64,000 nt of DNA. Source: Cenococcum geophilum (taxonomy: Eukaryota). The stretch's first letter is position 1. Every line of letters begins with the position of its first letter. Positions 16,701-64,000 of this stretch are shown one piece after another. The notes under the pieces are model-generated. The model ran no database searches and had not been told where the DNA came from. It worked only from the letters and a program-made list of their open reading frames with translations. The translations under genes were made by a program, and so were the position numbers. The stretch is from the NCBI GenBank assembly GCA_050273025.1, contig CP158635.1, forward strand, positions 5,704,001-5,768,000, given 5' to 3'.

Positions 16701-17196
16701 AAAAGGTCTTTCTACTAGCTAGTAAAAGGCAACTATATAATAAATAAAGCCTGTAAAGCGCTACCCCCTTATTTTTATAACTTTCTTAAAACAAACCTAA
16801 AAATAAAGTCTAAGTTTCTACGCCAAAAGATAGTCAATACTAATATTAAGAAATTTTTAAAAGGTAAACTAGAATTAACCTGCGAAGATATTTTATAACG
16901 CTTACTAAAAGAGTTTCGCGAATATATTAAATACTTCCTCCTTAAAAATATAGATAAGCTACCCCCCTACCAACTATAGAACTATAAAGTTAAGATTATA
17001 CCCAGAAAGTAGGCCCTATATTATAAAAATAGACTACTTTTACCCACTAAACTTAGTTATATAAAGAAGTGGATTAATAAGATACTAGGTAAGGGTTTTA
17101 TCCGCAAATTAACCTTACTAACCGCCGTATTACTCCTTCTTACTATAAAACCTAGCGGCGGTATATAAATCTACTATAACTACTAAGGTCTAAATA

Positions 17197-18125: not shown

Positions 18126-19863
18126 AAGGTCTAAATATAGTTACTATTAAAAATTAGTATCTGTTGCTACTAGTTTACAAGATACTTAACGCACTCTATA
18201 GTACTAAGTACTTTACTAAGCTTAATATAATTACTATATTTAATTAAATCCGGATTACAGAAGGCTATAAATAGCTTATAGCATTTATTACTCAGTTTAG
18301 GCTCTATAAAATATTAGTTACACTATTTAGTCTCTATAACGCACCTGCTATATTTTAAAACTATATTAACTATATTCTACATAACACCCTTAATAACTAC
18401 TGCACTACGTATCTTAATAATATCCTTATCTTCTTAAAAATACGCGCTAAGCATATAAAATATATAAATAAAATTATCCAGAGACTTGGTAATACTGGAC
18501 TCTAAATTAATATTAATAAGTTTAAGTTTTATGCTACTAAAATAAAATACCTTAGCTTAATTATCTTAACTAACGGCATAACTATAAACCCTAAGAAGGT
18601 GCAGGCCTTACAGGAATAGAAGGACCCAACGTTAGTTAAGAAACTATAGCAATTTCTTAGCTTTATAAACTTCTACTAATAATTTATCTAAGGCTACTCT
18701 AAGGTAGTTAAGCCTATAACTAGGCTACTAAAGAAGAGCATTAGCTAGTTATAGGGCCTTAACTAAATATAGGCGTTTCAGACCATAAAAATAGCGTTTA
18801 CTATAGCACTGGTCCTAGTATATTATAACTATATAAAGAAGACTATAGTAGAGACAGACGCCTAAAACTAGGCTTTAGATAGAGTGCTCTATTAAGCTAA
18901 TAAAAGTAATAAGCTTAAGCTAGTTACATTATTCTCTACTAAGCACTTAGCCTTTAAATATAACTATAAAATATACAATAAGGAGCTCCTAGCAATTATT
19001 AAGGCACTAAAAAAATAGCGCCCTAAACTGTAAGGAACTAAGCAGCTATTTAAAATTATTACGGACTATAAAAACCTCTAGACCTTTATAATAATAAAAC
19101 AATTAAACCAGCGCTAAGTCCGCTAGGCTAAGTCCGCTAGGCTAAGTTCCTTTCCCAATTTAACTTTATTATTACCTATAGGCTAGCACTAAAGCTATAA
19201 TCCTAAACGCTCTTAGCCGCCTCCTAGGCATTATACCTACTAATACTAATAATAAATGTCTATAACACCAAGACCGCGTTATCTTACCACTAAAGAAAGT
19301 TAACCCTACTATCTTAAAAGAGCTACTAAGCAAATCCCAAAACTAGAGCATTAAAGACTTTATCGCAGTAATAGACCTAAAGCCTAAGAAAAAAACCCTT
19401 AAGGAGCTTATTAAGAATGCCTATATAAAAAATAAACTCGCTAGGAATATATTAGCTGCGCTATATAAATAGAAAGACTATAAAGTATGCCGTTAGCCTA
19501 AGCAGATTAGGAAGCTACTCCGCTATAACAAATCTAAATATTTAATTATTGACGGCCTAATCTAGTATAAGAATTAAGTATTTATCCCTAATTTACTTAA
19601 ACTCTAACTAGAAGTTATATACCGTATATATAGTTTAGGCCCTATAGGTCACCTAGGCCGCATTAAGACACTAAACCTCCTTAATTAAATATATTAGTAG
19701 CTAGGTATTTTATAGTTTACGGCTACCTTTATAAGAGACTGCGCTCTCTACTTCTATATAAAGACCCTATATTTAGTACCGCCTAGTTTCCTAAAACTAC
19801 TAGAACTACTAGTCCGCCCACAAACTAATATCTCTATTAATTATATTATTAACCTACCTAAGT

Positions 19864-20794
19864 TCTATTGGGTCCCTAGCCACCTAAAAATCTACGGAAA
19901 TAAAATAGCAGATAAACTAGCTAAAAAGGGCCTCTCTAGAAGAAAAATATAATCTTCTTATTCTTCTCTAGCCTACCTAGGGAAATGAGCAAGAGAAAAG
20001 ATACTAGAATAGTAGAAAAACAATTAGCAACAGAATAAAAGCAAAGGAAAACACTATACTAGAATCTATAAAGAAAACTACCCTTTTTCTTTTAAAGCCA
20101 CTAAGGATAAATATCCTAAAAAGCTATAATCAGCTTTCTTTCAACTAAAACTAGGAAAAGGCTTCTTTAAATCCTTCTCTAAAACAATAGGGAAGGATAA
20201 AGAAGGTAGATACTTTAAGGACTATACCGCGGTACAAACCCCTACGCACCTCTTACTAGAATGCAGACTACATTGGGAAGATAGAAAGGAAATACAAAGA
20301 CAAATAGGCTCTTCTCTCTTCTTAGAGAAGCTTTTTTGTACAAAGAAAGGAAGAAGGGCGCTTTTTCTATTCTTAAGTAGGACAAAAATAGCTACTAGGA
20401 AGTGGCTAAGAGCAGAAAGATCTCTAGAAGGAGGCAACTCCTACTAAAGTCCTAGTAGATAGACTATAGAAAGTAAAAGGACAGAAATAAACTATAAAAA
20501 GGACAGGGACAGGCGTTAGGATTATTTATAATTTTATTCCAATTTTCTCTACTATTTTCCTATCGTTTCCTTATTACCTAATAGATATTAGCAACCTAGT
20601 ATTTTACTAGGAAGCTGTAAATCCCTAGTTTAGGGATTTATAAACTACTAGGACATAGCTACTAGTATATATTAAGCTGCCTAGAAAGGATTCATGTATA
20701 TAGAACTATGGCGCCATAGCCTAGAGACTGCATGCGTAGTATTGTACGTAGTATAATACAACGGATATAAAAAATATAAAAAAAATATAAAAAA
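19864..20794 (+). mobile_element. 5'-truncated LINE L2 (RNase H end, CCHC knuckle, 3' UTR, A-rich tail)
   Basis: 14-bp TSD taacctacctaagt (19850-19863 / 20795-20808), YWVPSH..IYGNEIADKLAK motif, C...C....QTPTHLLLEC, tail of three TATA-oligoA units. Confidence 0.92.
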
Positions 20795-22224
20795 TAACCT
20801 ACCTAAGTGCCTTATAACGGCAAAATATACAAATATATCTTTGTTATTGTTAACCGCCTAATAAAGATAAAATACTTTATTCCTATTACTAGCCTAAATA
20901 CTAAGAAGCTCGTTAAAATATTTATCTATACTATTTATAAGTTATATAGCGCTCTAAATACGATTATTTCTAATAGAGGCTCTTTATTTATTTCTAACTT
21001 CTAGCGTTACCTAAACTAGCGCCTAAAAGTAACCCTAAGCCCTAGCTCCGCATAGCACCCTAAAATAAATAATTAAACTAAGATTATTAATACAGTAATA
21101 AATAAGTACCTATACGCCTTTATAAGCTTCACCTAAGCTAACTAGGTAGATTAGCTCCCCCTTATTAAGTTTACTATAAATAACTAGGTTAATAAGACTA
21201 TAAAAATCTTACTATTCTTTACCAACTATAGCTATAACCTACGCCTAGGTATTAAACTAGTAGGCCCCTAGCTATTAGCCCTATCTATATATATAAAGAA
21301 GGAGTACCTATAAGCTAATACTATTGCTAATTACTTTAAGCACATCTTAACCTAACTTAAAGCCCTAGCTTATATCTCCTAGCAACGCTATAAAGATAAT
21401 ACTAATATAAAATAAGATAAAGGTATAATATTTAAAAAGGATAATATAGTTATAGTTAGTTTTAAAAATATAAAGACTAACTAGCCTAAGAGGAAGTGGG
21501 ATAATAATTAGGACGGACCCTAGCCCGTTTTAGCTGCCTATAAAGAAGTAGTTATAGTTAACCTCCTAAACTATATCTATATTAATAAGTCTTTCTATAC
21601 TTTAAAAGTCCGCCTCTAGTTCCCTAAAGAGATCTCTAGTTAAGTATATATTAATAAAGAGGAACGTTATAATATTATAGGTAGGATAGCCAAAAGGGAT
21701 AACAACGGCAATATTACGGATAAGTGAGAATTTAAAAAGATCCTTAATATATATAATAAACAAATAGACAAGCACGGCTTAATATATTATATTAAGTGGA
21801 AGTATTATAATAAGGAAACCTAGGAACCTAAAAAATCCTTAAAAGGGTGCGAGTGCGTACTACTAAAGTTTTATAAATAATACCTTAAGAAGCTAGGACC
21901 TCTAGACTAGGTATAAGATAAGGGAGAGTTACGCTAAAACCGTAGCCAACCACGAAGATAATTTATAGTAGTTAAGATCTTATAAAACTTTAACCGCTGG
22001 TTAAAGTTGTCTAATTAGTTAGTTTTTTGCTAAAAAGCGCTATATAGCGGCGGTATAGAGTTCTGCTAATTTTATCCGTTAAACTAACTAATTAGGATTT
22101 TCTATACCCGGTATAAAAAACCGCTATTAACTTAGTTAAGAGCGGTAAGTAAAAGTAATATCTTTATAGTAAAAACAAGTTACTTATTTAGTTTAGGGAC
22201 TAAACCTTTTAAGAAAGGGAGTAC

Positions 22225-22420
22225 TGTTACGGCACTAACTTAACGCATACTATTTTATACTGTCTCGTACTGTCTTATACTATTTCCTACTATTAGCTAG
22301 CCTACTTCTAGCGCCTTAGCGGCTGGCCCTACTATTTATATACAATACCCCCTTTTACCTTCTTCTCCTCTTTATACCACAACGTAGTTATTTAGTCTAC
22401 TTTATTATAGCACTATAACA
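22225..22420 (+). repeat. C 3' LTR
   Basis: TGTTACGG...TAACA; repeat of 13583-13778. Confidence 0.94.
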
Positions 22421-24354
22421 AAAAAGGAATAGGAGGGTATATAATCCGTACTATCCGTAATAGTTATTAGTTTTGTTATCTTTTTTGCAGGTTTTTAGTT
22501 TTCTTTTTTAGGAGAAGACTAAGGATGTCTTCTTTTTTCTCCTGCCCTAATTGGGCTAGGAGAAAGAGAAGGGGGAGAATAAGTAGATGTAGAACCTTCA
22601 TTACTTATTTCTATAGGAGGTTTTTTTTTAGACCTATTAGGCCTTAGCATTTTGTATCTTATATAGGGGTTCCTAGTTTTTACTATCCTTATACCCTTTC
22701 TCCTAACTAATCCTACTAGAAGATTTCTGAGGAGATTAGGCTAAAAGGTAGTAGAAAATCTAGCCTCTATATTTCGTGGTTTTAGTATTTAGTTTTAGTG
22801 TTTATGTCCGTGCCTCGCTTACAAGCTAGGACCACCCCTAAGAAGAATTTTCTGTTGGGGGAAAGGGGGTAAAACAACAAATAAATCCACCTCTAGCTCG
22901 CTAGGCAGTAGGAATTAAGTCTTAAAAGTTGGAAAATCGATTGTTTTTGATGGTAAGATGGGTATGCGTAAGTTTTGAAGTGTGGTGCTACCTTTTAGTA
23001 AGGTTGCATATGCGGTAAAGGTTCTAGTAGAAGTTTAAAAGTTAGGCAACTTAATACTTTAACTAGAAAGATTCCTTACAGAAGAATACCTAGATAAATA
23101 ATAGTGGTAGGAGTATCTAGAGAATATATATTTATAGTATATAAAGAAAAAGAAATAAACTAAGTATAATTAAGATCTAATAGCTAATAGTTAGTAAAAG
23201 GGGAGGCCTATAGGACTAGAGGGAGCTAGTAGTAGAGCCTTAGACCCTTAAAGGAATTATAGAACAACACCTAAATTTATAAGTTAATTAGTGGGATTAA
23301 AAGTTTAAAGCGCTAGTAGATAGTAGAGCGATAAGAAACTATATATTACTAGTAGCAGTTAAAAGGATAGGGTTACTATATAGGAAAAAAATACCTATAT
23401 CTGTTAATAATAATTTTAGGAGATCTAATAGCCTATAGAGAAGGCATTATTAATTTCAAAATAGGACCTATTTAGATAACTATTAAAGGGAGACAAGTTA
23501 AAATGTCTTTTAATATCCTACTATTAGGGAAGGACAAGACGATACTAAAAATACCTTAGTTATAGAAATACAATCTAAGGATTAATTGGGTTATAGGTTA
23601 GGTTAGTATTAGAAATACTTAATAACGCAAAATATAATAAGCTACTAAGATAGTATAATACTAAGTTAAAGCAATATACAAAGAGACTAAGTAAGGCTTA
23701 AGTTATATACTAAGGAGATACTATAGGTATAGTAAAAAGCTATAGAGCCTAGAAAGTAAAAAGCTGTTAGAATATACAGTATAGAACTATAAAATAGAAT
23801 TAGAACTAGAAATAAGTTTAAGATTCTTTCCAATCTATAAGCTTACTAAAACTAAGTTAGTGGCACTTAAGGAGTTTATTTAGGAAAACTTATAAAAGGG
23901 ATATATTAGACCGTTATAGTTATTAGCGAGATATCTAGTATTATTTATACCTAAGAAAAACGGAAAACTTAGGATGTATATTAACTATAGGCAGTTAAAC
24001 AGTATTACTAGAAAAGATAGGTATCCTTTACCCTTAATTAGTAAAATCTAAGATAGAATTAGCAATACGCAAATCTTTATAAAGATAGATCTAAATAGGC
24101 GTACTATTAGATTACAATTAAGGAAGGCAATAAATAAAAGGCAACCTTTAGGTTAAAGGAAGGACTACACAAGCTATTAGTTATATAATTCAGACTTATA
24201 AATATACTAGTAACGTTTTAAAAGCAAATTAATAGTGTATTAGGAGAACACCTAGATAAATTTATTATAGTATACCTTAACAATATTATTATCTACTCAA
24301 TAAGCGAGGAAGAACACGAGGAATATATTAAATAGGTCTTAAAGAGACTATAAG

Positions 24355-24862: not shown

Positions 24863-25036
24863 CTATCTCCCTCCTCTTTATCTTTATTCTTAAAGATTTC
24901 TAATATCTCTAAGTTATCTACTAGAGGTATAATGTCCGTCTAATTAATTTAGTTAATATCTTTACTTATTATACCTAAAGCCTCTTCTTCTTCTTCTACT
25001 GCTTAACGTGCTTATACTATAACTACTATAGTATTA

Positions 25037-25976
25037 TAAGATTTAATTTACCGTCCGACCTGGTCCCCCTAATGGGTCCACATAGACTAATTCCTATGGG
25101 AAAAAACCTCCTTATTTATAGAGAAAACCCCCATTTTTTGGGTGAACAAAAAACCTCCAGGGGAGACGTGAGAGGTAATACTTCTAGATAGCATCCGTAC
25201 TATATTAACGGGAGGAAAAACACCGTCAGGTTACTGCTCCGAGACTTTCCCCTTACGCGGGAAAGTGTCTAAAATGCCTGTCTCGCCCCGTCTACCACTT
25301 AAACCAATTTACCACGCTTATATATTGCCTATATAAAGTCGTGTGCCTGTCCCTAGCTCCTTTTCCAAGTCTCCTGTAAATATCTCCTAATAATGACGCT
25401 TGCGCTCCGCCTGGGCCTGCATACTAAGGTCTCTTATCCATTCCTCTATTAAAAGGTTTCTACAACGGGTATATATAACTTGGTATTGCTTAAGCCCTAG
25501 GGCCCAAACCTAGGCCCTTGCACCTATTTGTGAGGTATAGGAGAACGCTCTAGTATTTAATAGGGGGGACTAGTCCCTATAACTAGATACCCAGGTTACC
25601 AGGTAATATTAAAATAGGGGGCCTCTGCTACGCTTAGGGCGCGGATTATTCGCGTATATGTGGGTGCTGCGCGGTGTATATAGTATTCGTAGGAGGGAGG
25701 GGGTACGCCGGAGGGATAATTGCTTGTCGATTCGAATGACCGAACGTATACGATAAACGTAGTAGCTGTGTTCAAACTTTTGCTGGGGCTCACCCCCTAG
25801 TGAAAAATTTTCACACTACCACCACCACGTCGCTGCGCAGGCGCTGCGCAGCCGTACACACGTCTCTGCGTTTGCTCTGGTAGTCTATTAATACGATCTA
25901 AATGGAACATCAATAGTAGCTGCTAGGTTCCTGGGCTCCACCGCGTGAAGGTACAGAGGCCGATTTCGTCGAGCCC
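25037..25976 (-). mobile_element. Non-autonomous non-LTR retroposon D, copy D2
   Basis: 14-bp TSD ctactatagtatta (25023-25036 / 25977-25990); same 5' terminus as D1. Confidence 0.93.
25864..25976 (-). ncRNA. HDV-like ribozyme fold at the 5' end of D2
   Basis: P1 GGGCTC/GAGCCC, P2 CTCTGT/GCAGAG, P3 ACC/GGT, L3 TTCACGC, ~16-bp imperfect P4, J4/2 AG-C-AAA, in nested double-pseudoknot order. Confidence 0.78.
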
Positions 25977-28719
25977 CTACTATAGTATTACTAGGTGAAA
26001 CTATACTATCTCCGTGTTCTCGTTATGCAAAAGAGGGGTTAGTTTATATTGCGTTAGCGAGTCCTTTATCTTAGTAACCCTCTTCCTATTTAAAGTGTAC
26101 TAAAGCGAATATTTAATTATTCTGTAATGTTCGCTCTATTTCTAACGCTAAGTATACGCGTTCTATAACTCTTAATAGTCTCTAAGTTCCCTAAGTAACT
26201 TATTATAGGGTCTTATGTTTAATTAATTACTGCAAAGCTTAATAATAAGCTGTTAGTTACTTTGGCAGAACTTTACCGTTCCTATAACGCGGAGTAAGAG
26301 GCTGCTAAAGCCTAGCAATATGCCCTTAACTCCTGTCTTACTACTTCTGCTTAGTTAATCCGTCTTAAAAAGGGTTGTAAGAAGGTCTATTTTAAGGAGT
26401 AGAAACTTATAAAATAAGGTCTATAGGAACTTAGTAATAAAAAAACGGATTCTCTTCTAATGGAGAGGGAAATAACTCCAAATAGCTTGGTAGCTGCTCC
26501 TCTTGGGTCCCCCTTAGGTAACTCATTCTTTAGTAATTCTTCTTTATTAATACTGCCTAACCTATTTTCCTTTAATACTCCTATACCTTTCTTATAGCGT
26601 TTTTTAGGTTACTTAGTAGTTCCTAGGTAGTCTTACTATAGCTTATCTACTTTACTTTATACTATATTTTATTATCGATATCCTTATAACTAATAATCTT
26701 TAAAACTTACTATTTATCTTCTTCTTATCCTCTATACGTGTCTGCTTTATAGACTAGTGGCTTAATATTTCTATATGCTAGTTCTAGCATTATAATATAC
26801 TATATAGGGTAGATCTTTATCTTAGCTAGTAAATTTAACTTAAATATAACTAATAAAAAATTTTATATAGTAGCTATACTTTATCCCCCTCCTTAAGATC
26901 TGGTCCCTTAGATCTCTTAGCATTATAGTACTTTTTTATTTATTCTTATACTAGTTTAGCTATTTCTCTAAGGTCTATATAAAGATTTATTAAAGTCTCT
27001 ATTCTCTACCTAGCTATACTACTTATTTTCTTTACTTAATATGGTAATAATAATATTCTTAGCTTGTATCCGTAATTCGCCTTAAATGGTAATATACCTA
27101 TTTATTTTTATGGTGTTATATTATATATAAACTATATAACTAGTAATAGTAATACCTAATTATTTTATATATAGTTAATATAGTGCCTTAGATACTGTTT
27201 TAGTGTCTAATTTAATCTTTCTGTTTGTCTATCCATCTGCGGATAATATACTATTAATATTACTGCGTAAACCCCTTGTTTAGCTAAGAATACCTCTTAA
27301 AATACTGCTATAAATCTTAGATCTTTATCCGATATAATTTTATCTAGTACTCTATGTCTTATAAACACTTCCTTAATATATATTCTAGCAATATCCTCTA
27401 CTAATATTTCTTCTGTGTGTGCTATAAAGTAACCCTACTTAGTTAGTTTGTCTACTATTACTAAGATTGTATTATAATCTTATCTTATAATAGGATATCT
27501 TAACTTTAGTAACTTAATAATAAAGTTCTATAATATGACTTCCCATAGTCTTTCTGGTATTTTAATAGGTTATAGCCCTCTATACGGCTTATATTTTGTT
27601 AGTTTATTCCTTTAGCAATCTAAACATTTTTTTATAACTTATCTTACTAGCCCCTAGATTCCTTAAATAATATACTCCTCTTAAAGTCTTAACACTAAGC
27701 CTATAGCTTTATTATATCCTTATATTATTCCCTTATAGAATTCTTTTATAAACTCCTCTGTAATAGACCTTGGCACGTATATTATTTCTTTATTTTTATA
27801 CTACTCTAAGTCTAGATCCTCTACCTATATGTCTTAGATCTTCTATATCTAATTACTCTCTAGTAATTTGTAGATCTAGCTTTTTTATATTGCTGCTATC
27901 TTTAGATAATTATACCTAATTAATCCATCTTTGTCCCTTTGCAATATAGCCCCTAATAATTTCTTATTGTTTTGTAATTCAGCCTTTCTACTTAGAGTGT
28001 TAGCTTATACGTTATCTATACCCTTAGTATACTAAATCTTAAAATGGTATTCTGTAAGTATTTCCGCCTATCTAACCTATCTTTAGTTTAATTCCGTTAT
28101 TATTAGGAATCCTATAAGGTTCTTATAGTCTATTTTAACTATAAATAGTTTCTCTGTGCCTTATAAGAATGCTCTCTATTTTTTTAATACTGTAACTATA
28201 CCTAAGAACTCCTTATTATAGATATTATAGTTTAGTTTTAATAGTGTTATCTTTTAACTATAGTATGCTACTAGATGCTATGCGTCCTGGTGCTTTTATA
28301 GCAAATATGCTCCTAGTGCAAAGTTTAATATATTTGTCTTAATTAACCGTTTCTAGCTTTGGTTAATAGATTTTGAGGATTAATTCCTAGGTAAATAACT
28401 CTTTCAGTTCCTTAAATAGCTTCTTCTGCTTACTACCTTATACCTATAGTTCCTCTTTCTTTATTAATTAAGTAAACGGCTTAATATTCTTTAACTACTA
28501 TGCAATAAACCTCCTATAGTAGTTGTAAAACCCTAGGAATAATCTTAACTATATAATGTTCTTTAGTTCTTACCAACTTACTATAGCTTCTACTTTCTTT
28601 AGGTCTATGCTAATACGTCCTAGTTTAATAATAAATCCAATAAAATTGGTCTTCTGTATAAAAAACTTGCATTTCTTAATTGCTACTAACATCTATTCTT
28701 TTTATAGTCTCTTTAAGAC

Positions 28720-39093: not shown

Positions 39094-39300
39094 ATAAGAA
39101 GAAAAGATGCTAGTAGCAATTAAGAAATATAAGTTCTTTACTAAGAAGACCAATTTTATTAGATTTATTATTAAACTAGGGAAAATTAGTATAGACCTAA
39201 AGAAAGTAAAAGCTATAGTAAGTTGGTAAGAACTAGAGAACGTTATATAGTTAAGATCGTTTTTAGGGGTTTGCAACTACTATAAAAGGTATATTACATA

Positions 39301-39715
39301 ACGTAATTGGTAAGTAACCTGGCCATGCAAGTAACCTAGCCACCTCAAAAATTAGAAAATTCATACTTTAATATCTCAACAACCACGTAATAATAAATTT
39401 TAAAAATTTAGATTTAAACTTTTATATACGCTTTGCAGCTTCTATTAAAGTTGCATAGTAATTAGTTAGGTAGTTTTTAAAATATTATAATTTGGGGGCC
39501 AAAATAAAGCCAAATTGCGATATCTTAACAACTACTGAATTAATTACTATGTAACTTTAATAGAAGCTATAAAGTGTATATAAAAGCCCAAACCTAAATT
39601 ATTAAAAATTATTATTGAGTGGCTGTTAAGATATTAATGTATGAATTTTCTAATTTTTGGTGGGGTTTTAAGGTGGCCAGGTTACTTACGTGGCCAGGTT
39701 ACTTACCGAACACGT
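39301..39715. mobile_element. Fot1/pogo-type (Tc1/mariner) foldback MITE
   Basis: ACGT termini, ~45-bp TIRs with an internal gtaacctggcca direct repeat, TA TSD; the interior is also largely palindromic. Confidence 0.92.
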
Positions 39716-40039
39716 TAGTAGTTAAAGAATATTAAGCTATTTATAAGACTTATAAAGAAAGAGAAACCATAGATATAGGGTAGTAGGTAAAAGAAGTTAT
39801 TTTAAAAACTTAAGGAGTTATTTACCTAGGATCTAATCCTTAAGATCTATTAACCAAAGCTAGACATAGTTATAGAAACGGACGCATTAGACTTTACACT
39901 AGGAGTATATTTACTATAGAAGTACTAAAACGCATAGCATCCAGTAGTATACTATAGTTAGAAGATAATACTACTAGAACTAAACTATAACATTTATAAG
40001 GAGTTATTAGGTATAATAACAGCACTTAAGGAATAAAGA

Positions 40040-52710: not shown

Positions 52711-54467
52711 CGAAAAGGTTTAAAAAGCCTTTTAGGAACTACACGCAAAGTTTATAGAAGCTCTATTACTATAGCATTTTAACCTAAATTAGCTACTAAT
52801 AATAGTTACTAATGCATTAAATTTTGCCCTTATTAGTATTCTATTATAACCTAATAGGCATCCGGACGCTACTTAGCTCTACTAAAGACTAGTAGCATTT
52901 TATAGTAGAAAATTCTAGGGGCCTAAAGTTAGGTATTATACCCATGATAAGGAACTACTGGCTATAGTTAACTGCTTTAAATAGTAGCGACACTACCTTA
53001 AGTACGCGAGCTATACCACCCATATACTCTCAGATTATTATAATTTACGCTACTTTATAACTACAAAGAAGCTTATACCTTAATAGGCTAGATAGGTAGA
53101 GGAGCTTATATAATGGGACTGGCCTAGTTATAGTAGAAATGTCTTGGTGAAACACTCGACAGGTAAATTCTAAAGCTTTAACCAAATTCTGCCAAATTTT
53201 GCCAGCTTAATTAACTTCTGCCAAGTTCTACCAAATTAATTAAATTCTACTAAAGTCCGTTAAAGACCGCATATGTATATACGCACGCATTAACCATAAG
53301 CCCCTAACTATTTAATTATATAATTCTTTTGTTATTTCTTTCTCTTCTTTATATAACGTCTTATTCTCTATAAAAGCTATATATCCTTAGATTTAGATAG
53401 AATTTATATTATTCCTATAAATCTTCCTTAAAGCCTCTTCACACCCTTATACTACGTTGCGTTAAAATAACTATTATTAAAATAGCAAATAAACCTAAAT
53501 CCCTTTTAATAATTATAAGCATTATATCCCTAGTTAGGGAACAGTTAACTATAATATAATAGTCCTTTATAAATACCTTAGCCTAGCAGCAGGCTGCACT
53601 AGAAGCCTAGTATTAGTAATTAATGGAAGCACTCCGCAAAGAACTCCGTAATGTTAAAGCACTTATATTAAAGACCCTAACACAATCTATAAACAAAATT
53701 AATATAACTATATCTAAGCCTAGCCCCTTAAACGCGAACTTTAAACTAGTAATAGTAACTTAACCTATATCTATAATAAATTTAATACCCGCTATAAAAT
53801 CTAAAAAGCTCTCTAATTCTTTAATGTTTAATAAAAACTAAAATAACCTACGTCCCTTTATAAATAAGCTGTATCTTAAACTTTTAATAAACTATAACTA
53901 ATACCCTATTAAAGCTAGCAAGGTTAGCCATGGAATATCTTATTTAAGTAAAGACGCTATACGTACTATAGATCTATTCTTCCGTAATAGTACCTTTATT
54001 AATTTTAAAACCTTTATCTCTCTGCTAGAATAAATATATAATAACGCTAGCCGTAAATATACAGCTATTATAAAACTTAAAAACCTATAATAACGGAACC
54101 GAGACTTTACTAGCTTCTTTTTGGAATTTTTAGGCCTTATTAGCGAGCTAGATTAAAATAAAGCCGCTAGAGTTGCTACCCTTTAATAAGCTATTTTAGA
54201 CAAGATTAGAGCCTAGTTAGTAGGTAAAAAACTGCGAAAAGACCTATCCGAATTTACTATAATATATTAATAAATAAATGGACATGTCTATGTGGCTAAG
54301 CGAGCACTGTAGCAGCACCCCTGCATCTTAGCAACACTAACATCATCAATATTTACAAAATTGAGCCTTACTTGCTTGCTTTCCATATTAGTCTTATTTA
54401 AGAGCTAATGCCTTATTTACTTAATTTCTAATAATTAATTGTTGCTGTTAATGACTTAACGACCTAT

Positions 54468-55569
54468 ATGCTTATCTAAACCTTCGCGAATTATCTATAA
54501 AAACCTTAAAAACTTAACTAACGACGATACACTTAACGAGCTAAACTCCTCAGAGGTTACCTACCAGTCTCCCTTACCTTCCCCTATACCTTTAGGCGAT
54601 ACGCCGGCATTACAGTCTCTATCCTCTATAATAGCGCCTCTCTCCGCGGCTTAACGCGAGATTTTAGCCGCTAAAAAAGCCGAAGAACGGCTCTAGTAAC
54701 TACACGAGAAGGACCTAAGGATTAGAAGAGCTTAGGTAAAGGAGGTTAAGGACTAGGCAACCGACCGGAAAATAAGACTCTTTTAGGAACAGGAGGACTG
54801 TACTAAAATGCTACGCGTCCAAAAAGAATAGGAAGATTAGGCGACTAAACTCTATATATTAAGCCTCGCTACGGTAATAGCAAGATTAGCTACGGTAGTA
54901 TTATTCTTAACCCTAATTAATAAACTGGGTAAGTTGCTCCTATCTATAGCCAATATCCTAAATACCCTTCTCCTTGGCGTCCCGAATAAAGAGATACTTA
55001 AGGTATTTTAAGGTACTTTCTTACCTAATAACCTCTTTTACCTCCAGATACACTAGCTCTGGTCTAAGCCTTAGAATAATATCCTTATTATTAATAGCGT
55101 CCTTTTTATAAGACCGAAAGAAGGGACAATAAAGGACTACCCGTCCGTTAAAGTATAGGTAGAGGGCTTCCTTAACTATATAATAATTTTAATTATTATA
55201 TATAAGAATCTTTCGGTAGATCTTATTCCCTAAATACTTACCTTCTATAATTAAGTTATTTGGCTATCTACTACCTACTAAATTGCTTCCTTAATGACTA
55301 TAGCCTTAAAGCACCACTCTATGGTTATTTAAAAGAACTAGTTAGAGCTAGCTAACTGGAAGATCTTTAGTAACTTCCTAGATATCTATTACAATCCTAG
55401 TACTTATAAATCCGCATCTATCTTAAAACGCGCGTAAGTAAGTACTAATATCTTAAGGACCTATTATAGCTTTAATAGAGGGAAGTGTGACCTGGGCAAG
55501 GATTGCAAGTTCCCGTATACCTATAGCAAATACGGTGGCTTATATACTACAAGGAATTATAAGTAGTAA
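54468..55569 (+). pseudogene. Ngaro ORF1 (gag-like, C-terminal Cys/His zinc finger)
   Basis: De-RIP CYSFNRGKCDLGKDCKFPHTCSKCGGSH.ARNC at ~55462-55560. Confidence 0.78.
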
Positions 55570-57330
55570 TTACTAAAGGAAAGTGTTAATAAGGAAAAGG
55601 AAGAGAAGGAAGAGGATTTTATTAAGCTATACCTATACTCCACCAAAACTGTGCTCTACCCTTATAGTACAGGTAGGCTAAATACTATACTATTATTTCC
55701 AGTCTTCCTGCCCTCCTCTCCTCTATAGGACTCTCCCTCCCCCTTAATTATTTAAGCGTGGGGGCGTTATCTATCCCTATACCCTAGCAACCTCTAATAT
55801 AACATTATCGGTATCTTAAAGTTTGGATACTAGATTAGGGCAAACCTAGAAATTAAGCTCCTCTCCTAAAAGAACTAAGCCTTAATAGCTATAAATACGG
55901 TCCTAATCTTAGAGAAGATTAGCGCCGATCTAGATATAGGCAGGATTATAATAGTAATGTCTTCCATTATATCCTTACCGCTAGGTTTAGTACCTAAAGC
56001 GGATAAAGGATAGCGCCGTATTTATAACTTATCCTCACTATCTAGCCGATCTGTCAACGACTTAATCCCTATAGCATTCGCCATACTACAATATTTAACA
56101 GTTAATTAGGTTCTCTAATACGTTATATATACAGGCCGTAGTTATATAATTATTAAGAGGGATATTAAGGACGCCTTTTAGAACATCCCACTTTCTATTA
56201 AAGCTTAACGCCTTATAGGGTTCTTCTAGAAGGGTATAGTATATTTTAAACATTACCTCTCATTCGGCCTTCAAACTGCACCCTTTTTATTTAATCTTTT
56301 TGCGGAGGGATTCTATTAGATACTTATCCAATATATCTTAAACGCCGCCTTAGAGCACTATTTAGATAACTTCATCTTTATACTCTCTAACGCTTCTATT
56401 CTCCCTTAATTGCTTAATATATATAACTAATTAAGCAACAAATTAGGCATCCTACGAAACGAATTAAAGAATATTAAAGGCACTACGGCTAAAGTCCTAG
56501 GTTATATTATAGATACTCTAAAGTCTAAGCTGCGTCTTTCTCCTTTAAAACAGGCTACTATAATTAAGGAGATTAATAAAGCGTTAAGTGGTAAATCCCT
56601 AACGCTAGTTTAGAGTTAAAAACTAGCTAGTAGACTTACTTGGAGCGCCTAGGTAATTAGGCTTGGGCGTTTATATAACCGCTCTATCTAGGAGTTCATC
56701 TCCACTTTTATAAAGGCAGGTGGTTATTCTTACTAACGGCTAACAGCTAAACTTTACCAAGACTTATTATGGTAGAGGGATGCTCTTACCCTTTTAAATA
56801 GTATCCTCTTCTTTAATAATACGGATTAAAAATAATTCTATCTCTTCTTAAACGCATCCAGGATTTTTAGTTACAGGGCCTTCTTCTTCCTTAAGGATTC
56901 TTAAGGGACAACATAGCCGCCCTATTTGGTATCTCTACCCTAAGATAATTCTTTAAGCTGCTACCCTAATGCAAAACACCGCCTTACCCTAATTAATAAG
57001 TGGGAGGTCTAAGCGATTACAACCTCGTTCTAGCTCTGGGTAATATAGTAGGAGCATAGCTTAGTCTATATCTATATAGATAACATAGTAGCACTCTTAG
57101 GATTTTAGAATACGGTAGTAAAAGGACCGGGTAATTACCCGCTCCGTAAGATCCTCCAACTAGCCATAGCCTACGATATTACGCTCTATACAGAGTGGGT
57201 TTCCTCTACAGAAAATAGGCTAGCTAATGCTCTATCTCGTTTTAATCGCGATAGGGTATTATTACTATACCCGCATTAGGATACTTCTAATTTACTATTA
57301 CTATACGCTTCTTTATTACATTTAATCTAA
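55570..57330 (+). pseudogene. Ngaro ORF2 (RT and RNase H)
   Basis: SPLGLVPK..WRRIHDLS, DIKDAF, LSFGLQTAP.LF, YLDD relic at 56359-56370, DAS..., EN.LADALSR. Confidence 0.9.
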
Positions 57331-58410
57331 CGCTGAAATAGAAGACTTAGTCCCTCTTAAAGACCCCCTACCTAATTTCTAGATTAAGGTAAAAGCCCCC
57401 TTAAAATACTTCGGCCAACTATTATAGCATAGCCTCTCTAATAGAATAAGAGATTTATACTATCCCGCAATTAAGAGTTAGGAGGGCTACTGCAACCTTT
57501 ACGGAGCGGTAAAGTACCTAGCGCCCCTCTACCACCTAGGAGAATAGATTACCCAACAGATCTTTAGTAATACTAGTCTAGAAATAAGCCGTATTAAGCC
57601 TACTATAGTTAGAGCCTATATCTCCGTAATTTAATCCCACTATATTAACGCTAATTATAACACCTCCGTCTTTAATAATCCTATTATTAAAAGGATCCTA
57701 GATGGTGTAACATCTATAAATCCCTCTACTATAGCTAAAAGATTGCTAATTACTAAAGACATCCTTGCCTAATTAGTTACCCTAAATGCCTAATCCGTTA
57801 AGGATCTTAACTTTAACGCCGCCGTTACTATAGCCTTTACGGGATTCCTTTATCTAGGCAAGATTACCTATACTAAGGCTCAGAAAGATAGCCACGCCTT
57901 CTCTACTATAAAATGTACCAGAAACAATATAACGCTGGCAGAGGACTATATAATATTATATCTAAAGCATAGTAAAACGGACGTTAATTACCAAGGAGTC
58001 TTAATTACGATTGCCGCTTTAGGGTAACCTAAATACGCAGTTTAAGCTATAAAACACCTATTTAAAAATAACCCCCAACCTAGAAACGCCCCTCTCTTTC
58101 GCTTTAAGAGATTGGCCTTTATAAGCTACGCGGTTAGGAATAAGCTAAAGTATAAAGTTGCCGCTCTTAGCCTTTACTCTAAGCTCTATAACGGACACTT
58201 GTTTTAGAAAGGTGCTGCTTAATACACTTAAGACAACGGTTTTACAAACGGCTAAATACAGCAACTAGGCCGGTGGTCCTTATAAGCATTCCAGCTTTAC
58301 TGTTTATTATCCCTAAAAGACCTATTCCGGCTAAGTATAAACTTCTAACATAGAACGCTAATACCGTTCTTATTGTTATTCGCCCTAGATATAATGGGCG
58401 AAGGTATTTA
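57330..58410 (+). pseudogene. Ngaro ORF3 (tyrosine recombinase)
   Basis: AF.GFL.LGE ~57835, SKTD ~57970, GHSFRKGAA relic at 58193-58219, GRWS ~58268, then AFQLY. Confidence 0.9.
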
Positions 58411-59884
58411 GGCATAACGGCGTATAGGAGTGCCTATTTTGGCACTCTAATACATTAACTTAAATCTCTCCTTTCCCCCCCTTTTTTATTTTTTATTTTT
58501 TCTTCCCCCTACTCTACCTTATATAGTACGGGCGCTGCGCTTCTAGGTCTATAGGCATTACATTTAGTTAAGGCAGGGTAATCCCCTATAAATGGCCTTG
58601 CGAATATACCCATTCTTAATTAATGCCTTTAAGCCCGTACCCACCAATTAGATTAATTAATCCTCTTCTCCGCAAGCGTGTAAATAATAGATAGATATGT
58701 CTATATGGCTAAGTAAGCACTATAGCAGCACCCCTACATCTTAGTAACACTAACATTATTAACATTTACAAAATTGAGCCTTGCTTGCTTGCTTTCCCTC
58801 CCACCTATACCTTTTTCTTTAGTTGCATATTTTGGGCTTTATAAATAGATACTGTAGCAATATGCTTGCGCACGGGTCTATAGGTATCACGTTTAGTCAA
58901 GGCAGGGCAATCCCCTGCAAATGGCCTTGCGAATATACCCATTCTCAATTAATGCCTTTAAGCCTATACCCACCAATTAGATTAATTAATCCTCTTCTCC
59001 GCAAGCGTGTGAATAATAGATAAGGACCTTTAATATAATAAGCAGACTTATTCTCTAAAGCTAACTATACCTTATATTTAAAACTCTATAAAACCGGTAT
59101 ATGCTCTAAAACGCGATCCTTTTTTAAGACCTAAAAGCCCTATATATAACCTTATAGACCTTAATGCTACCTAATCCTATATACTCTTAGGAACTAATAA
59201 ATAAAGAACTTAAGCTATAAATAGAGAATGCTTTAGATGCGGTAAAAGAGGATATATTTAAATGAATTGCCAAACTTACCCCTTTAAAAAGGTCCGCCAT
59301 AGTTGCTCCTAATCCTTAAATTATACTCGTTCTATAAACTATACTTAGTCGCCATAAAGTACTTTACCTTTAGTTAACTTAGAAAACAAATTATCTAAGG
59401 GCTAAGTTGCGCCTTAATATAAAAAGTGGAAAAGAATAAGTGTCTAGGCTCTTCTAGCGCTAATATATAATATAACTCCCTTAATATACTCGGCGAAATT
59501 CAAATACTTAGAAAATAGAAGGAAGTATAAATCCTAATAGATAGCGGGGCTACTAGAATAGGCTTTATTAATACAAACTATATAAAAACTTAATGCTTAA
59601 ATTTAAAGAAACTTAATAAGCCCTAAGGCCTATAAGGCTTTAATAATAAACCCTTAATATATAGTAAACTAACGTACTATGCTTAAGTAAATATATAGAT
59701 AGGTAGATACCTTAGATATATTTCTTTATTTATAACATTCTTAAAGTAATATAAAGTTATACTTAGATATAAATGGTTAAAATAATATAACCCCTTAATT
59801 AGCTGGGTTAAAGAAACGCTAAAGTTCCGTATAACTTACTGCTAAAGTTATTACTTAAAATACTATATACCCTACAAATATATA

Positions 59885-61198
59885 TAATAATAATAATTCA
59901 TTGCTTAACGTCCGATTCGGATCCCTATTGGGCCCACGCGGACTACTCCTTATTTACATATGGGGAGAAAACTCAACTTAAGAAAGACTCAACTTGAGAA
60001 AACCCCGTGATCCATTTCCCCGCCTCTTAGGACTCGCCTATAAGGCGCCTGCAAGGCGCCTACGAGTCACCTATAGTGCTCCTACTACCTTACTTTTTAA
60101 CCTCCTTAGGAACCACTGCTGCTATAACTAGCCTACGGACGCGTTAGTATCGCATACTTTACTCTACTACTATAAAGTCATTAGGGGGCGCCTATTGCTT
60201 ACCCCTCCGCCCTTTATTATTATTTCCTTTATGACCTAAAACTAGTTTAGTATATTTTAGCTAATAAGCCACTAGGTAACCGCCTTAAGGCCTTTTTATA
60301 TTAAAAGCAGTGTCTTATAGTTCTCTATGCTAGCTACTAAGAGTATTACTTCTTAGTTAGTGCGTAAGGGGTATAATAGTATTATATATTTTGGTGTCTG
60401 TTTTAGCCAGCCACATTTATATCTTGGGCTACCTACTAGGACACCCACCTAGTAGAGCTAGTCTTTTAGTCCTATTATTCCTGTTCTTAAAAGCGTTGCC
60501 ATTATATTTTCTACCTTCGTTAGGCCTTTTTAGAGCCCTAGGGTGTCTACCCCCTATAGCGTTAACTATGCTACGGCTTAGGTTCCTCTTGCCTTAGTCA
60601 GCCTCTATACCTTTAACTCCTATATACCTCTTTAGCGTTAGTCTAGCCAGTATTGCATTACAGTAGATAGTTTCCCAGCGTTCTTTTATACTCTACTTTG
60701 GCTCCTTTTTCTCTCTTACTATTGTCCTTACTAGCCTCTTGCGCGTTTCCCTTCCTCCTTTATATAGGCCTGGGCCCTAAAGCAGCACCATTCTTCTTCT
60801 GCTTTCTTTACCTATTTCTCTAATATATCTTCCCTACTTTAGGGTTGTTAGTTTGTTCTCCTATAAGGCGCCCTAGGGTCCCTCTATAGTTTATTTAAAC
60901 GTGTCTTGATATACTTTCTAATATTAAAGTTACATTCCTTTTACGCCCTTTATATTACAGCGGCTTCAATATATAGTTATAGGGGGGGAATATTAGCTTC
61001 CTTCTCAAGCAGAGCTGTGGCCGTTCGCTTATATCCGCCTGTTATACTCTAGAGGCAGGCTGTTTAGACCTTTTGGAGTGATTTAAGGAGCGATTTAGGG
61101 GGGCCTTTCTCAGATTCTCTAATGGCCTAGATACTAGACCTATACGTTATAGTTGGCCGGACAACTGCTGTGTATAGTAGGCGTGACCTCTAGAAGCA
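59885..61198 (-). mobile_element. Tad1-like LINE L3, 3' portion (RT C-terminal region, 3' UTR, (TTA)n tail)
   Basis: RSRLLYTAVVRPT.TY...W and ACL.SITGGYKRTATALLEKEANIPPL on the minus strand; taataataataa at 59885-59896. Confidence 0.85.
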
Positions 61199-61891
61199 TA
61201 GCAGGTAGTTATATAGTAGAGTTTAATATGCCTGCTTATTTAGGCCTCTGTTCTAACTGATATCGGTATATATAATGTTTTGGAACATTTCTGCCTTATT
61301 CTGGAACGAGTTGTCCTTGTTCCAGAATGAGTCGTATATCGCTTTAATCGGCTCCATTCTGGATTGCTTGCCTTATTCCAGAAAAGACCTTTAAAGGTTA
61401 GGCTAATTACTAGGTGGTATAGTAGGTAGAGGCTTGCTAACGCCCACACGTATACTATAAGTCGTGAAGTTCTTTAAAATAGATGCATTTTATGCCTTCA
61501 TTTTTCTTTATTTCTAGATTTAATTGGTAAATAGTTATCGCATAGGGTCTAGAATAACCTTAAATTACACTAACTATACCTATATAACGTCGCCAAAAGA
61601 TCCACTTAATAAGTGTACATTTAGTGGTTAAATAATATTTTGCAATTAAGCGTAAGGCATTTTGTAGGGCTCTCGTAAGCTCCTTTATGGTATTAATTTT
61701 GCTTAAAAATCGCCCAATTAGGCTTAGCGCAGGGGCTATTATAAACTTTAAATTTTTTTTATTAATCCTTCCTTACCTACCGCCTCTACGCACGACTTAA
61801 TTAGATCCTTAATAATATACGCACCTTTTCTGTAAGTTCTAAATATATATTTAACTCTACTGCCAGCTTAAATCTAACACTAGTAATAGCA

Positions 61892-64000
61892 ATATCGTCC
61901 TCCGCGTCTACCTCCGCGCCTACCTCCGCGCCCGCACCTAATGCAGCTCCCTTACCTCCTACTAATACTCCTACCGCGAATAAAGACTATAACGCTAGCC
62001 AAGTAGTTATTTCCTTCTTAGTTATAGTAAAGCCTGCCTTTACTAAGTATCTAGAAGAAACCCAGAACGCCTTAATAAAGCGCGTTATATAGAAAAAAAT
62101 ATAATGACATTATTTCCTAGCTCACTAATCTAGGTTATAAAGCTCTCTCGCAGGCTAAACGTAACGCTAAATTAAAGGCTAAGAGCCGCTGGTTTATATA
62201 GGAATAAGGTAAAGAGTATATACGCGGCCTCTGGAGGCGGTTAATTCGCTTACCTAACTATAGCTTAAAGGTTGTTCCTAAGCCAGAAATATATAATACC
62301 ATCGTTTAGTGCTATAAGGAGCTTTACTATATAGGGCAGAAGAAGATATATAGTACGCTTACGGCCAATTAATACGGTATATAGCTAGTGGAAGTTGTTT
62401 AGCTTCTAGAATACTGCTGGGTGTGTATTAAGTAAGTTTAACTTTTTATAAAATTGTTAGTCGTACTAATATTCTTATAGGAGCGCTCCTAACGCTATAT
62501 AGCTACCACTTAATGCAATTATCTCTAGGGCTCCTTTTGATTGTATCTAGGGCGATCTTATTAATATGCGTAATAAGGCTAATAGTGAATATAAATGGAT
62601 CCTATAGATACGCGATTACTTCAGTAAATATTATACCCTCTACCCCCTTAAGTAGAAGACCGCTGAGTAAGTTGCCGCAGCTATGCTCTAATGGATACAT
62701 TATTATATTCACCCGCGTATTTAGTAGAGTAATAACAGCTTAGAATTTAAAGGCGCCCTTCTTATACTGCTTAGGCGTTATAAAATTAAGGTAATTAACA
62801 GCCGGCTATAATACCCCTAGTCGTAAGGCCTTGTAGAGCAAGCCAACGGTTATATAAAGAAGAAGCTTTATACAGTAAAGCGACTCTTAGGAACTTCGCG
62901 ATGGGCGGCGGCTTGCCCAATTATTGCAGCCTTAATTAATCGCACCTACTATAAATTAATTGGCTGCATACCTTTCTACTACCTCTATGGGAGAGATCCT
63001 TAGCCATCTACTTTAGTGGCGCCTAGCCACCGGGCTACTGCAGAGCCTCTGCTAAAAGTTACCGACGCCTCTAAAGCTAAGGAGAAAGAGGATCTTAATA
63101 GTAATAAGGAAGTTCTCGGTCCTCTACTAGATAAGAACGGTAATAGGTAATAGGCAGCTAAGCAAGAGCGCAAGGACAATAAATATTTTAATGAGGAACC
63201 TAACGGTAGCTAGAGCTCGATCGCGGCCAAATATAAAGATGAGGAGAATAAGGATTAATTAGAAGATAAGGAGAATAAGGGTTAATTAGAAGATGAGGAG
63301 AATAAGGGTTAATTAGAAGATAAGGAGAATAAGGGTCTAATTAATCCTTATTCTCCTTATGTTCTAATTAACCCTTATTCTCCTTATCTTCTAATTAAAG
63401 TTAATATATAGAGGCCAAGGACTCCTTTAAACCCTACTTTATCTAACAATAATTAAACCTTTAAAGGCTGCTCACCAATCTTAAGTTGAACTCGCGAGAT
63501 TATAGAGGCTATACAGTTATTAGGATTAAGTGGATTTAGATAGCCTCCGCCTCTACTAAAAGGCTTTTCTATACTAAGCTAAGACGCCCAGATGCAATTA
63601 ATAAGAGAAGAGTTTACTAAATTAAATAGATAGATTATAGCCGACGCTGCTGCTAGAGCTCTATAGTAAGCTAAGTTTAATTGTGATATTAAAAGAAGGT
63701 AGCGATTTATCTATTAGTAGGAGGAGTTATATTTAGATAACTGGATTAAAGATCTGGAGGATCCTTTTTATATACCCGGAGGCTCCTTTATAGATAATCT
63801 TGCCATAAGGGTTAAAGATATACGCGCATAGCTCTACCGCGTAGCTAGTAGAGTAGGCCTACCACCTATAGATTTTAATAAGTACTATAACGTCGCTATA
63901 CCTTCTTACCGGCATAAGTTAATTCGGGTGGCAAAGGACTCTAATTACCCTATTTACTCTATACCACTATGGCGAGAGCTTATACGGCAGGTGCGTAAGA
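61892..64000 (+). pseudogene. RIP-degraded HHCC + DDE integrase/transposase
   Basis: H..GQKKTY..CWVC at ~62315-62426, QGDLIDM ~62548, WILQIRDHFSK ~62596, DNGSEFK ~62730, VEQANG ~62833. Confidence 0.78.
63238..63398. repeat. 27-bp tandem repeats followed by inverted copies
   Basis: gatgaggagaataagg(a/g)ttaattagaa x3.7, then ~2.3 reverse-complement units from 63337. Confidence 0.9.

Follow-up and report, generated by a model that had tools for sequence, protein, structure and literature searches.

A candidate ribozyme-headed retroposon of Cenococcum geophilum and the 3′ end that it shares with long interspersed nuclear elements

Results

Element D and its setting

The 64,000-nt stretch of Cenococcum geophilum DNA analysed here, called the window throughout (contig CP158635.1 of assembly GCA_050273025.1, positions 5,704,001 to 5,768,000, forward strand), contains two copies of a non-coding retroposon, element D (D1 and D2), together with a fragment of a long interspersed nuclear element (LINE), L3, and the last ~100 nt of D and L3 are homologous (Table 1). 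The window is AT-rich, with a GC content of 0.29–0.40, and in self-comparison repeats make up almost all of it. The differences between the repeat copies of the window are dominated by transitions. Between D1 and D2 (86% identity across 972 nt) there are 813 matches against 101 transitions and 17 transversions, with a CpA/TpG context at 69 of these 101 transitions, a bias that reads as the signature of fungal repeat-induced point mutation (RIP).

Both copies of D are bounded by perfect target-site duplications, of 12 bp in D1 (AAGGTCTAAATA, at 17185–17196 and 18126–18137) and of 14 bp in D2 (CTACTATAGTATTA, at 25023–25036 and 25977–25990), and the repeat that is split by D2 has an uninterrupted copy at ~12051–12131 in the window. 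On its sense strand D starts with GGGCTCGA... and ends with ...GGTCGGACGGTAAATTAAATCT(AT/TA). No conserved reading frame could be found in it, the longest frames being of 53 aa in D1 and 68 aa in D2. ARAGORN predicted no transfer RNA (tRNA) gene in the window, no Rfam family matched the window at gathering score, and at expectation (E) values up to 10 Rfam returned no tRNA, 5S or 7SL match on D, where RIP-like damage could mask a weak one. Because D has duplications at both ends, no conserved open reading frame (ORF) and no tRNA-like head, it is a non-coding retroposon of 929–940 nt. Compared with a classical short interspersed nuclear element (SINE), D has the 3′ end shared with a LINE and the target-site duplications, but no head of tRNA, 7SL or 5S RNA origin that contains an internal RNA polymerase III promoter was found in it, and it is longer than usual SINEs.

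Table 1. Location of the elements and of their parts. Positions without a prefix are those of the window; the prefix L denotes metagenome loci. HDV, hepatitis delta virus; RT, reverse transcriptase; LTR, long terminal repeat; E, sibling family of D.
Feature	Position	Strand	Description and basis
D1, copy 1 of D	17197–18125	−	929 nt, non-coding retroposon, in RT region of gypsy-type element
D1 5′ head, candidate HDV-like ribozyme	18008–18125	−	Rfam drz-agam-1, 17.7 bits; E-derived model, 26.2 bits
3′ module of D1	17197–17292	−	GGGGTTTTTC...stem-loop GTCTG..CGGAC...GGTAAATTAAATCTAT; aligned with LINE 3′ ends; 80–81% to LINE-B ends
D2, copy 2 of D	25037–25976	−	940 nt, inserted in another repeat
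D2 5′ head, candidate HDV-like ribozyme	25859–25976	−	E-derived model, 38.6 bits; P1, P3
3′ module of D2	25037–25133	−	LINE-B blastn match, alignment, stem-loop prediction, profile
L3	~59879–61201	−	5′-truncated, RIP-like mutated 3′ fragment (~1.3 kb) of endonuclease + RT LINE
3′ module of L3	59897–60010	−	local alignment, stem-loop prediction, profile match
L3 tail	59879–59896	−	(TTA)n(TA)n on sense strand, read directly
Gypsy-type LTR retrotransposon remnant	18130–22600	+	RVT_1 9e-12, RT_RNaseH 6e-17, weak chromo domain; D1 at left edge
LINE-B copy	L055:964–4704		ORF2 at L055:964–4365, 44% to P0003, 40% to P0001
LINE-B copy	L057:23078–22443		
Family E copy	L025:14571–15581	−	
Family E copy	L030:3983–4989	−	
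Family E copy	L035:3655–4700	+	
Family E copy	L040:12359–13378	−	
Family E copy	L058:7434–8407	+	
Family E copy	L072:3254–4277	+	
Family E-type stretch	L072:18728–18875	+	

Homology of the 3′ ends

Because D and L3 both sit on the minus strand, the region that they share is the 3′ end of the elements. Read on the plus strand, CGTCCGA starts at 17212, 25052 and 59910, and the block ...GA(G/A)AAAACCCC ends at 17289, 25131 and 60010 in D1, D2 and L3, respectively; the strings quoted in an earlier note on this DNA, which had proposed that D and L3 have a common 3′ terminus, thus lie where that note had placed them. The last block of D1 is AAGAAAAACCCC, and the exact form GAGAAAACCCC occurs in D2 and L3 only. 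The motif had also been described as lying immediately next to the tail, which is roughly correct: in L3, 13 nt (GTTAAGCAATGAA) lie between the motif and the (TTA)n(TA)n run, and in D there are 15–16 nt (GGTAAATTAAATCT..) between the motif and the element end.

Plain Smith-Waterman alignment with the L3 end gave a score of 35 for D1, against 17.1±2.6 in dinucleotide shuffles (0/1000 as high), and of 25 for D2, against 16.8±2.5 (10/1000 as high). A second scoring, which puts a light penalty on transitions and was chosen for the RIP-like C>T/G>A damage in the region, raised these scores to 65.5 for D1 (shuffles 21.5±3.7, maximum 43) and 52.5 for D2 (21.3±3.5, maximum 38.5), with 0/1000 shuffles as high for either copy. 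When the window was taken as 1596 tiles of 160 nt on both strands, the best non-self matches of the L3 end were four tiles of D1 and D2 (57.0, 56.5, 54.5 and 49.5), and the next tile scored 34.5. Furthermore, an nhmmer profile that was built from two D ends and from two ends of another LINE, LINE-B (see below), with all L3-family sequences left out, recovered the L3 of the window at 60005–59905 (E = 2.5e-5) as well as L3-family ends in metagenome loci (E from 2e-6) in a search of 1.08 Mb. Default blastn (word size 7) of the L3 end against the window missed the D–L3 match, for which Smith-Waterman and profile methods were needed. The last ~100 nt of D and L3 are therefore homologous, as upheld by the shuffles, the tile control and the independent profile, and an alignment no better than shuffled controls, the outcome that the earlier note had named as speaking against a shared end, did not occur under the transition-tolerant scoring.

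For all families RNAalifold, run on 50 ends, predicted a stem-loop that lies immediately upstream of the tail and combines an outer stem (G-C/U-A/C-G) with an inner stem of 3 bp and an apical hairpin (CCC/GGG); a conserved 3′ stem-loop is plausible. Within the 3′ module of the window L3, at 59970–60000, there is a 16-nt internal duplication (TTTTCTCAAGTTGAGTC-like), which is also found in the copy at L040 and is missing from most copies of the family; a shorter 8-nt variant of this duplication marks another L3 subfamily.

The LINE family of L3

The read-through translation of 60331–61504 matches LINE ORF2 proteins with endonuclease and RT domains (P0001: 78% identity over 47% of the query, E = 1e-82), and a Pfam search of this read-through returned no family. 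According to tblastn, the window holds just residues ~749–1070 of the 1079 residues of ORF2, that is, the C-terminal ~320 aa. L3, which the earlier note had put forward as a candidate autonomous partner of D, is hence a dead, 5′-truncated remnant of ~1.3 kb that is not autonomous, and all matches of the family to it begin at ~61199–61201. By eye, an integrase-core-like stretch can be recognised in the read-through at ~62900–63300 on the plus strand, and for this reason another retroelement would lie on the 5′ side of L3.

Scanning metagenome contigs of two data sets with P0001 gave 75 loci (1.02 Mb), to which the window L3 is 81–91% identical over the whole fragment, the matches always starting from query position 50–52 (window ~61199–61201) and stopping at ~1346–1391 of the 1391-nt query, mostly at 1358–1374 (45 copies). 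Full-length copies of the L3 family measure ~5.55 kb (for example, L057:8282–13830), and dozens of them begin alike with GGAGCTCTTGCTGC...; none starts with the head of D, so that the idea of full-length L3 relatives beginning with the same ribozyme as D was not borne out. At the other end, the proposal that the motif is terminal in full-length LINE copies held up, since the motif, wherever the 3′ end is complete (45 copies), forms the last ~110 nt and has the same end point, followed by GTTAAGCAATGAAT, then by an (AAT)n or (TAT)n run of varying length, and then by unrelated flanks.

One copy of the family, L001:2145–7608, has open frames of 349, 240 and 1171 aa and a GC content of 0.51 and may represent an active master copy; its contig stops before the 3′ end of the element. 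The intact ORF2 of this copy (L001:3874–7386) matches RVT_1 (7.8e-33) and Exo_endo_phos_2 (1.4e-15), and no match to RNase H was found in it. The ORF2 of Tad1-clade LINEs comprises an endonuclease, an RT and an RNase H. Since RNase H (PF00075) is also absent among the 50 best relatives of LINE-B, where RNase H-bearing LINEs appear only at 21–33% identity, the description of the partner LINE as Tad1-like finds no support.

An automatic search found no target duplications at the assumed 5′ start in 12 L3-family copies and in the window L3. Many copies of the family have (A/G)ACTTTT just before GGAGCTC, and in two of them, at L045 (3406–3421) and L030 (~8262–8281), a target duplication could be seen by eye 16–20 nt upstream of GGAGCTC; the 5′ ends of the L3 family would therefore differ in the additional bases that they carry, whereas D and its sibling family E (see below) have a fixed first base.

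A second LINE with the same module

A blastn search of the metagenome loci with the last ~100 nt of D returned matches of 79–81% over 100–102 nt (E = 1e-17 to 7e-14), located at L055:4595–4690 and L057:22553–22457, both of which fall at the end of LINE-B, tail included. Collinearity of the two LINE-B copies extends across 686 nt, from the C-terminus of ORF2 to the module, and ORF2 homology lies just upstream, so that the module is LINE-B's own end. Over alignment columns 23–117, for which the identities were computed, D is 68–72% identical to LINE-B (86–91% with transitions counted as matches) with 0 gaps, versus 54–55% to the L3-family consensus (78–81% with transitions counted as matches) with 6 gaps. 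ATT repeats near the tail are common to D and LINE-B, which also have the tail-proximal motif GGTAAATT(A/G)AAT in place of the GTTAAGCAATGAAT of the L3 family. The suspicion of the earlier note that a sister family rather than L3 itself would be the relative of D agrees with this comparison, and the better-matching partner type of D is, on these alignments, most likely LINE-B or a still closer unsampled relative.

A sibling family

A profile of all 3′ modules also retrieved matches that have only the last ~70–110 nt in common with the L3 family, and these led to a second family of retroposons, family E, which is partly present in L041 in addition to the copies of Table 1. Family E is ~1030 nt long, has target-site duplications and contains no conserved ORF; across the D and E copies the longest frames are of 40–106 aa, and none is common between copies. 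Target-site duplications of 10–17 bp are found in 8/8 D/E copies, and in 7/8 they abut the first base of the head exactly. The first ~190 nt of E and some of its internal blocks are homologous to D. With the L3-family LINEs, E has in common the last ~48–69 nt, at 79–88%, plus a 29-nt block of the 3′ untranslated region (UTR), and nothing else: no likeness to the 5′ UTR or to the ORFs of the L3 family could be detected. In this respect E departs from the short internally deleted elements (SIDEs) and NARTc, which originated by internal deletion of a LINE, because pieces of the 3′ UTR are all that E and the L3 family share and the head of E is absent from the 5′ ends of these LINEs.

The 3′ ends of E are of more than one type, two copies having the L3-family type and four having GTTAATCAAAGA followed by (TAC)n/(TTA)n-like tails; no LINE source was found for this third type of 3′ module. 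Because E combines a D-homologous head with an L3-type 3′ end, D and E form one superfamily that carries different LINE-type tails and would have exchanged its 3′ modules, and the L3 family appears to be parasitised by family E.

Predicted ribozyme fold of the head

The 5′ head of D1 has an Rfam match to drz-agam-1 of 17.7 bits (E = 1.3), which starts from 18124, one base inside the element, and lies below the gathering score. The head of E has only two Rfam matches, to HDV-F-prausnitzii (14.7 bits) and to drz-agam-1 (14.5 bits), both from base 1. A covariance model made from E alone, with P1, P3 and P4, was then searched in 260 kb, where it found D2 at 38.6 bits (E = 1.4e-7, from 25976) and D1 at 26.2 bits (E = 2.2e-4, from 18125), from base 1 of the element in both. 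P1 of E is GGCCGUC/GACGGCU, with 7/7 pairs in 6/7 copies, and P1 of D2 is GGGCUC/GAGCCC, which keeps 6/7 pairs with bases that differ from those of E; P1 covaries between D and E, with compensatory changes. P3 (ACC/GGU) is formed in 9/9 heads, one RIP-damaged E copy having AUC/GGU with a U·G wobble.

In the alignment of the heads, 95.7% of the cells pair versus 83.1±1.9 in shuffles (0/500 as high), nine pairs are changed on both sides versus 2.8±1.2 in shuffles, and slid controls pair at 25–58%, so that P1, P3 and P4 of an HDV-like fold are backed by the pairing counts. A candidate P1.1 was identified by eye as CC/GG in D and GU/AC in E, with an offset of one base, and the candidate catalytic C is not pinned to one position. 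A profile of the head gave nine real matches in 1.08 Mb, all of them at D or E heads and none at LINE 5′ ends. The model of the E head also gave a weak match without P1 at L065:1764–1847 on the minus strand (16.5 bits, E = 0.069), which may be a decayed head or may be due to chance. The duplications that abut base 1 in 7/8 D/E copies are as expected from an RNA whose 5′ end is fixed by cleavage. Given the covariance matches and the pairing counts, we consider it probable that the heads of D and E are an HDV-like self-cleaving ribozyme, with catalysis predicted from the fold.

Transcript data

In the raw RNA-seq run X23, coverage by strand was 310.7 versus 6.25 per base on the D2 region 25803–26100 and 61.3 versus 1.37 per base on the D1 region 17207–17513, and there were no reads on the adjacent gypsy stretch 18128–19662. 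The strand bias is thus strong, and provided that the library is stranded in the usual way, the RNA in X23 is of the D sense strand. Pieces like D also occur in the metatranscriptome contigs X15–X17, and contigs cannot show transcription or ends. Pile-ups of read starts in X23 (17190, 25054, 25931 and 25963) were considered as evidence for a cleavage site and rejected, since diverged reads are clipped where the likeness stops.

Discussion

Our results make it likely that D is a ribozyme-headed, non-autonomous retroposon with a LINE-derived 3′ module, copied by the RT of that LINE. In such an element, the HDV-like ribozyme of the head (~90–120 nt) would trim the transcript to the first base of the element, a body of ~700 nt would extend between the head and the 3′ module, and the 3′ module of ~100 nt, with its short TTA-type tail, would have been taken from a LINE of the endonuclease type, namely from its 3′ UTR. 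The RT of that LINE would recognise the module, including the conserved stem-loop, and target-primed reverse transcription would then insert D at new sites and produce the 12–14-bp duplications; the D/E superfamily would have exchanged its 3′ modules to fit different LINEs. It is from sequence comparison that we infer the recognition of the module by the RT, the catalysis by the ribozyme and the identity of the mobilising LINE. Of the earlier proposal that D is mobilised by an L3-related, Tad1-like LINE, the LINE-type 3′ end and the better match of a sister family stand, and mobilisation by such a LINE is likely; L3 as the living partner and a ribozyme in the L3 family do not, and the Tad1-like nature of that partner is unsupported.

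A number of points weigh against this reading. For the head, the Rfam scores of 14.5–17.7 bits are far below the gathering scores of 37–44 (17.7 versus 37; 14.7 versus 44), and the D2 head has no HDV-like Rfam match up to E = 10. The pair counts are generous, in that the alignment had been fitted to the structure, with one doubtful row (L065) among ten; P2 (GG-CUCUG/CAGAGCC) is conserved but does not covary, and between P4 and the 3′ strand of P2 there are ~24 nt more in D than in E. For the 3′ module, the stem-loop is no more than plausible because its covariation is little, namely one compensatory pair, U-A to C-G in LINE-B. This outer pair of the stem is U-A in D, as in L3, and C-G in LINE-B, for which reason a third, closer LINE family may be the true partner of D. 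No LINE-B copy lies within the window and the loci (1.02 Mb) yielded no copy of D, so the presence of D and LINE-B in one genome would be deduced from the L3 family that both sequence sets share. The LINE-B copies are degraded, with a longest frame of 119 aa, and the searched collection contained no close intact LINE-B protein, the best being 46% identical. As for the RNA, 2204 of the 2559 X23 reads fit only partly and 2482 are <95% alike, so that the reads stem from diverged relatives and not from the window copies.

The origin of D could also be sought in the internal deletion of LINE-B, that is, D would be a SIDE, LINE-B itself would be ribozyme-headed and the shared end would be due to descent. 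This is the route by which the R2 SIDEs and NARTc are described to have originated (PMC3414825; PMC3383444), and it draws on the fact that the 5′ end of LINE-B lies beyond the L055 contig and the L057 locus. We nevertheless regard it as unlikely, because nucleotides 1–836 of D match nothing in 4.7 kb of LINE-B, and because the sibling case fails, E being without likeness to the 5′ UTR or ORFs of the L3 family and the L3-family LINEs being without the head; the homology of the D and E heads and of parts of their bodies points instead to a lineage of their own.

Slightly more doubtful still is mobilisation of D by the L3 family itself, for whose RT the shared stem-loop would be sufficient, the surrounding sequence being of no importance. 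A copy of this family sits in the window, its 75 loci make the family abundant, open ORFs persist in one copy at least (L001), and D and L3 share both the outer stem pair U-A and CGGAC. Nevertheless, E, the L3 family's own parasite, agrees with the last ~48–69 nt of that family at 79–88%, and D reaches only 54–55% to the L3 consensus with 6 gaps and has the loop and tail motif of the LINE-B type. That the likeness of D and L3 is a product of chance or low complexity in AT-rich mutated DNA, as the silence of default blastn and the plain D2 score reached by 10/1000 shuffles might be taken to indicate, can practically be dismissed in view of the 0/1000 transition-tolerant shuffles, the D tiles being best of 1596, the independent profile (E = 2.5e-5) and the fact that two LINE families and two parasite families all end in this module.

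Returning to D as a ribozyme-headed retroposon with a LINE-derived 3′ module, our results raise the further, tentative possibility, which we hold with less than even confidence, that D and E represent a superfamily of fungal retroposons of ~1 kb, which combine interchangeable LINE 3′ modules (L3, LINE-B and a third (TAC)n type) with a free-standing HDV-type head that was not inherited from a LINE. If this is true, the interchangeable modules would allow a single parasite lineage to move from one LINE family to another, and such elements could be the genomic context of many 'orphan' fungal HDV-variant ribozymes.

The sharing of a 3′ end with a LINE is a textbook route of non-autonomous retroposons, and ribozyme-headed LINE parasites are already known. 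Less ordinary is what the comparison of D and E suggests, namely two related parasite families with the same ribozyme-like head and different LINE-specific tails. Stringent pairs of SINEs and LINEs are exemplified by those of eel and tortoise. D is like the stringent pairs described in PMC3747384 in having the ~60–100 nt of a LINE 3′ end plus a tail repeat, a conserved stem-loop (predicted in D) beside the tail and target-site duplications.

The R2 SIDEs of Drosophila, as described in PMC3414825, arose by internal deletion of a LINE and are site-specific in ribosomal DNA, and an R2/R1 hybrid SIDE is reported there in which the R2 ribozyme is joined to an R1 3′ end and which inserts with R1-type target duplications. 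D and E are like these SIDEs (PMC3414825) in being short and non-autonomous, with an HDV-like 5′ ribozyme (a candidate in D and E) and a LINE 3′ end, which in the SIDEs the protein of the LINE recognises, and unlike them in being dispersed, lying in other repeats, measuring ~1 kb and having a body of their own. Furthermore, the R2 SIDEs described in that source derive from their partner LINE, whereas such a ribozyme is missing from the L3 family, the one partner LINE with a visible 5′ end. The L1Tc and NARTc elements of trypanosomatids, like others there that bear the Pr77 sequence, are described as having an HDV-like ribozyme at their first nucleotides that frees the RNA from co-transcripts (PMC3185411, PMC3383444, PMC4035085). 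In L1Tc and NARTc, as presented in these sources, the head is common to the LINE and its parasite, whereas here it is common to D and E and absent from the L3-family LINE; the hosts differ as well, being kinetoplastids for L1Tc/NARTc and fungal for D and E.

For fungi, 230 examples of HDV ribozyme variants in 26 species, two of them shown to cleave, were reported by Li & Breaker 2017 (PMC5640933), with an extra nucleotide between P2 and P3, with a consensus that includes an E-loop in P4 and with 'widely variable gene associations'. The heads of D and E are like these variants, as characterised there, in that a single base, C or U, lies between their proposed P2 strand and P3. The word retrotransposon is absent from the main text of PMC5640933, and in an incomplete collection of the literature we found no link between fungal HDV-type ribozymes and LINE-dependent retroposons. 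If confirmed, D and E would be a natural case of modular partner-switching by LINE parasites, and fungal HDV-type ribozymes would gain a role in defining the 5′ end of retroposon RNA. The natural pairing of E with the L3 family and of D with LINE-B would provide matched systems for studying what fungal LINE RTs recognise.

Neighbouring repeats

A Pfam search of the 129 stop-free frames of the window of at least 50 aa gave just four weak, sub-threshold matches, one of them to RNase H (19716–19949). This match (E = 0.007) belongs to a read-through stretch at ~19700–20900 on the plus strand, in which an RNase H-like motif is followed by a Cys/His motif like that of the C-terminus of fungal LINE ORF2; the stretch may be a second LINE fragment, one that bears RNase H, and it has no match to either 3′-module profile. 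Just downstream, 20584–20890 has very high depth in metatranscriptome contigs.

Two stretches of the window resemble their own reverse complement and form palindromic repeats, one at 39299–39717 (78.5% over 433 nt) and a second at 63255–63398 (86% over 144 nt). At ~54000–58500 on the plus strand, an RT that bears a YLDNFIF motif could be recognised by eye in the read-through translation, and after it comes a region like a tyrosine recombinase, a combination that suggests a retroelement of the DIRS/Ngaro type; the repeats at 58686–58797 and 54273–54384 may be the terminal repeats of this candidate.

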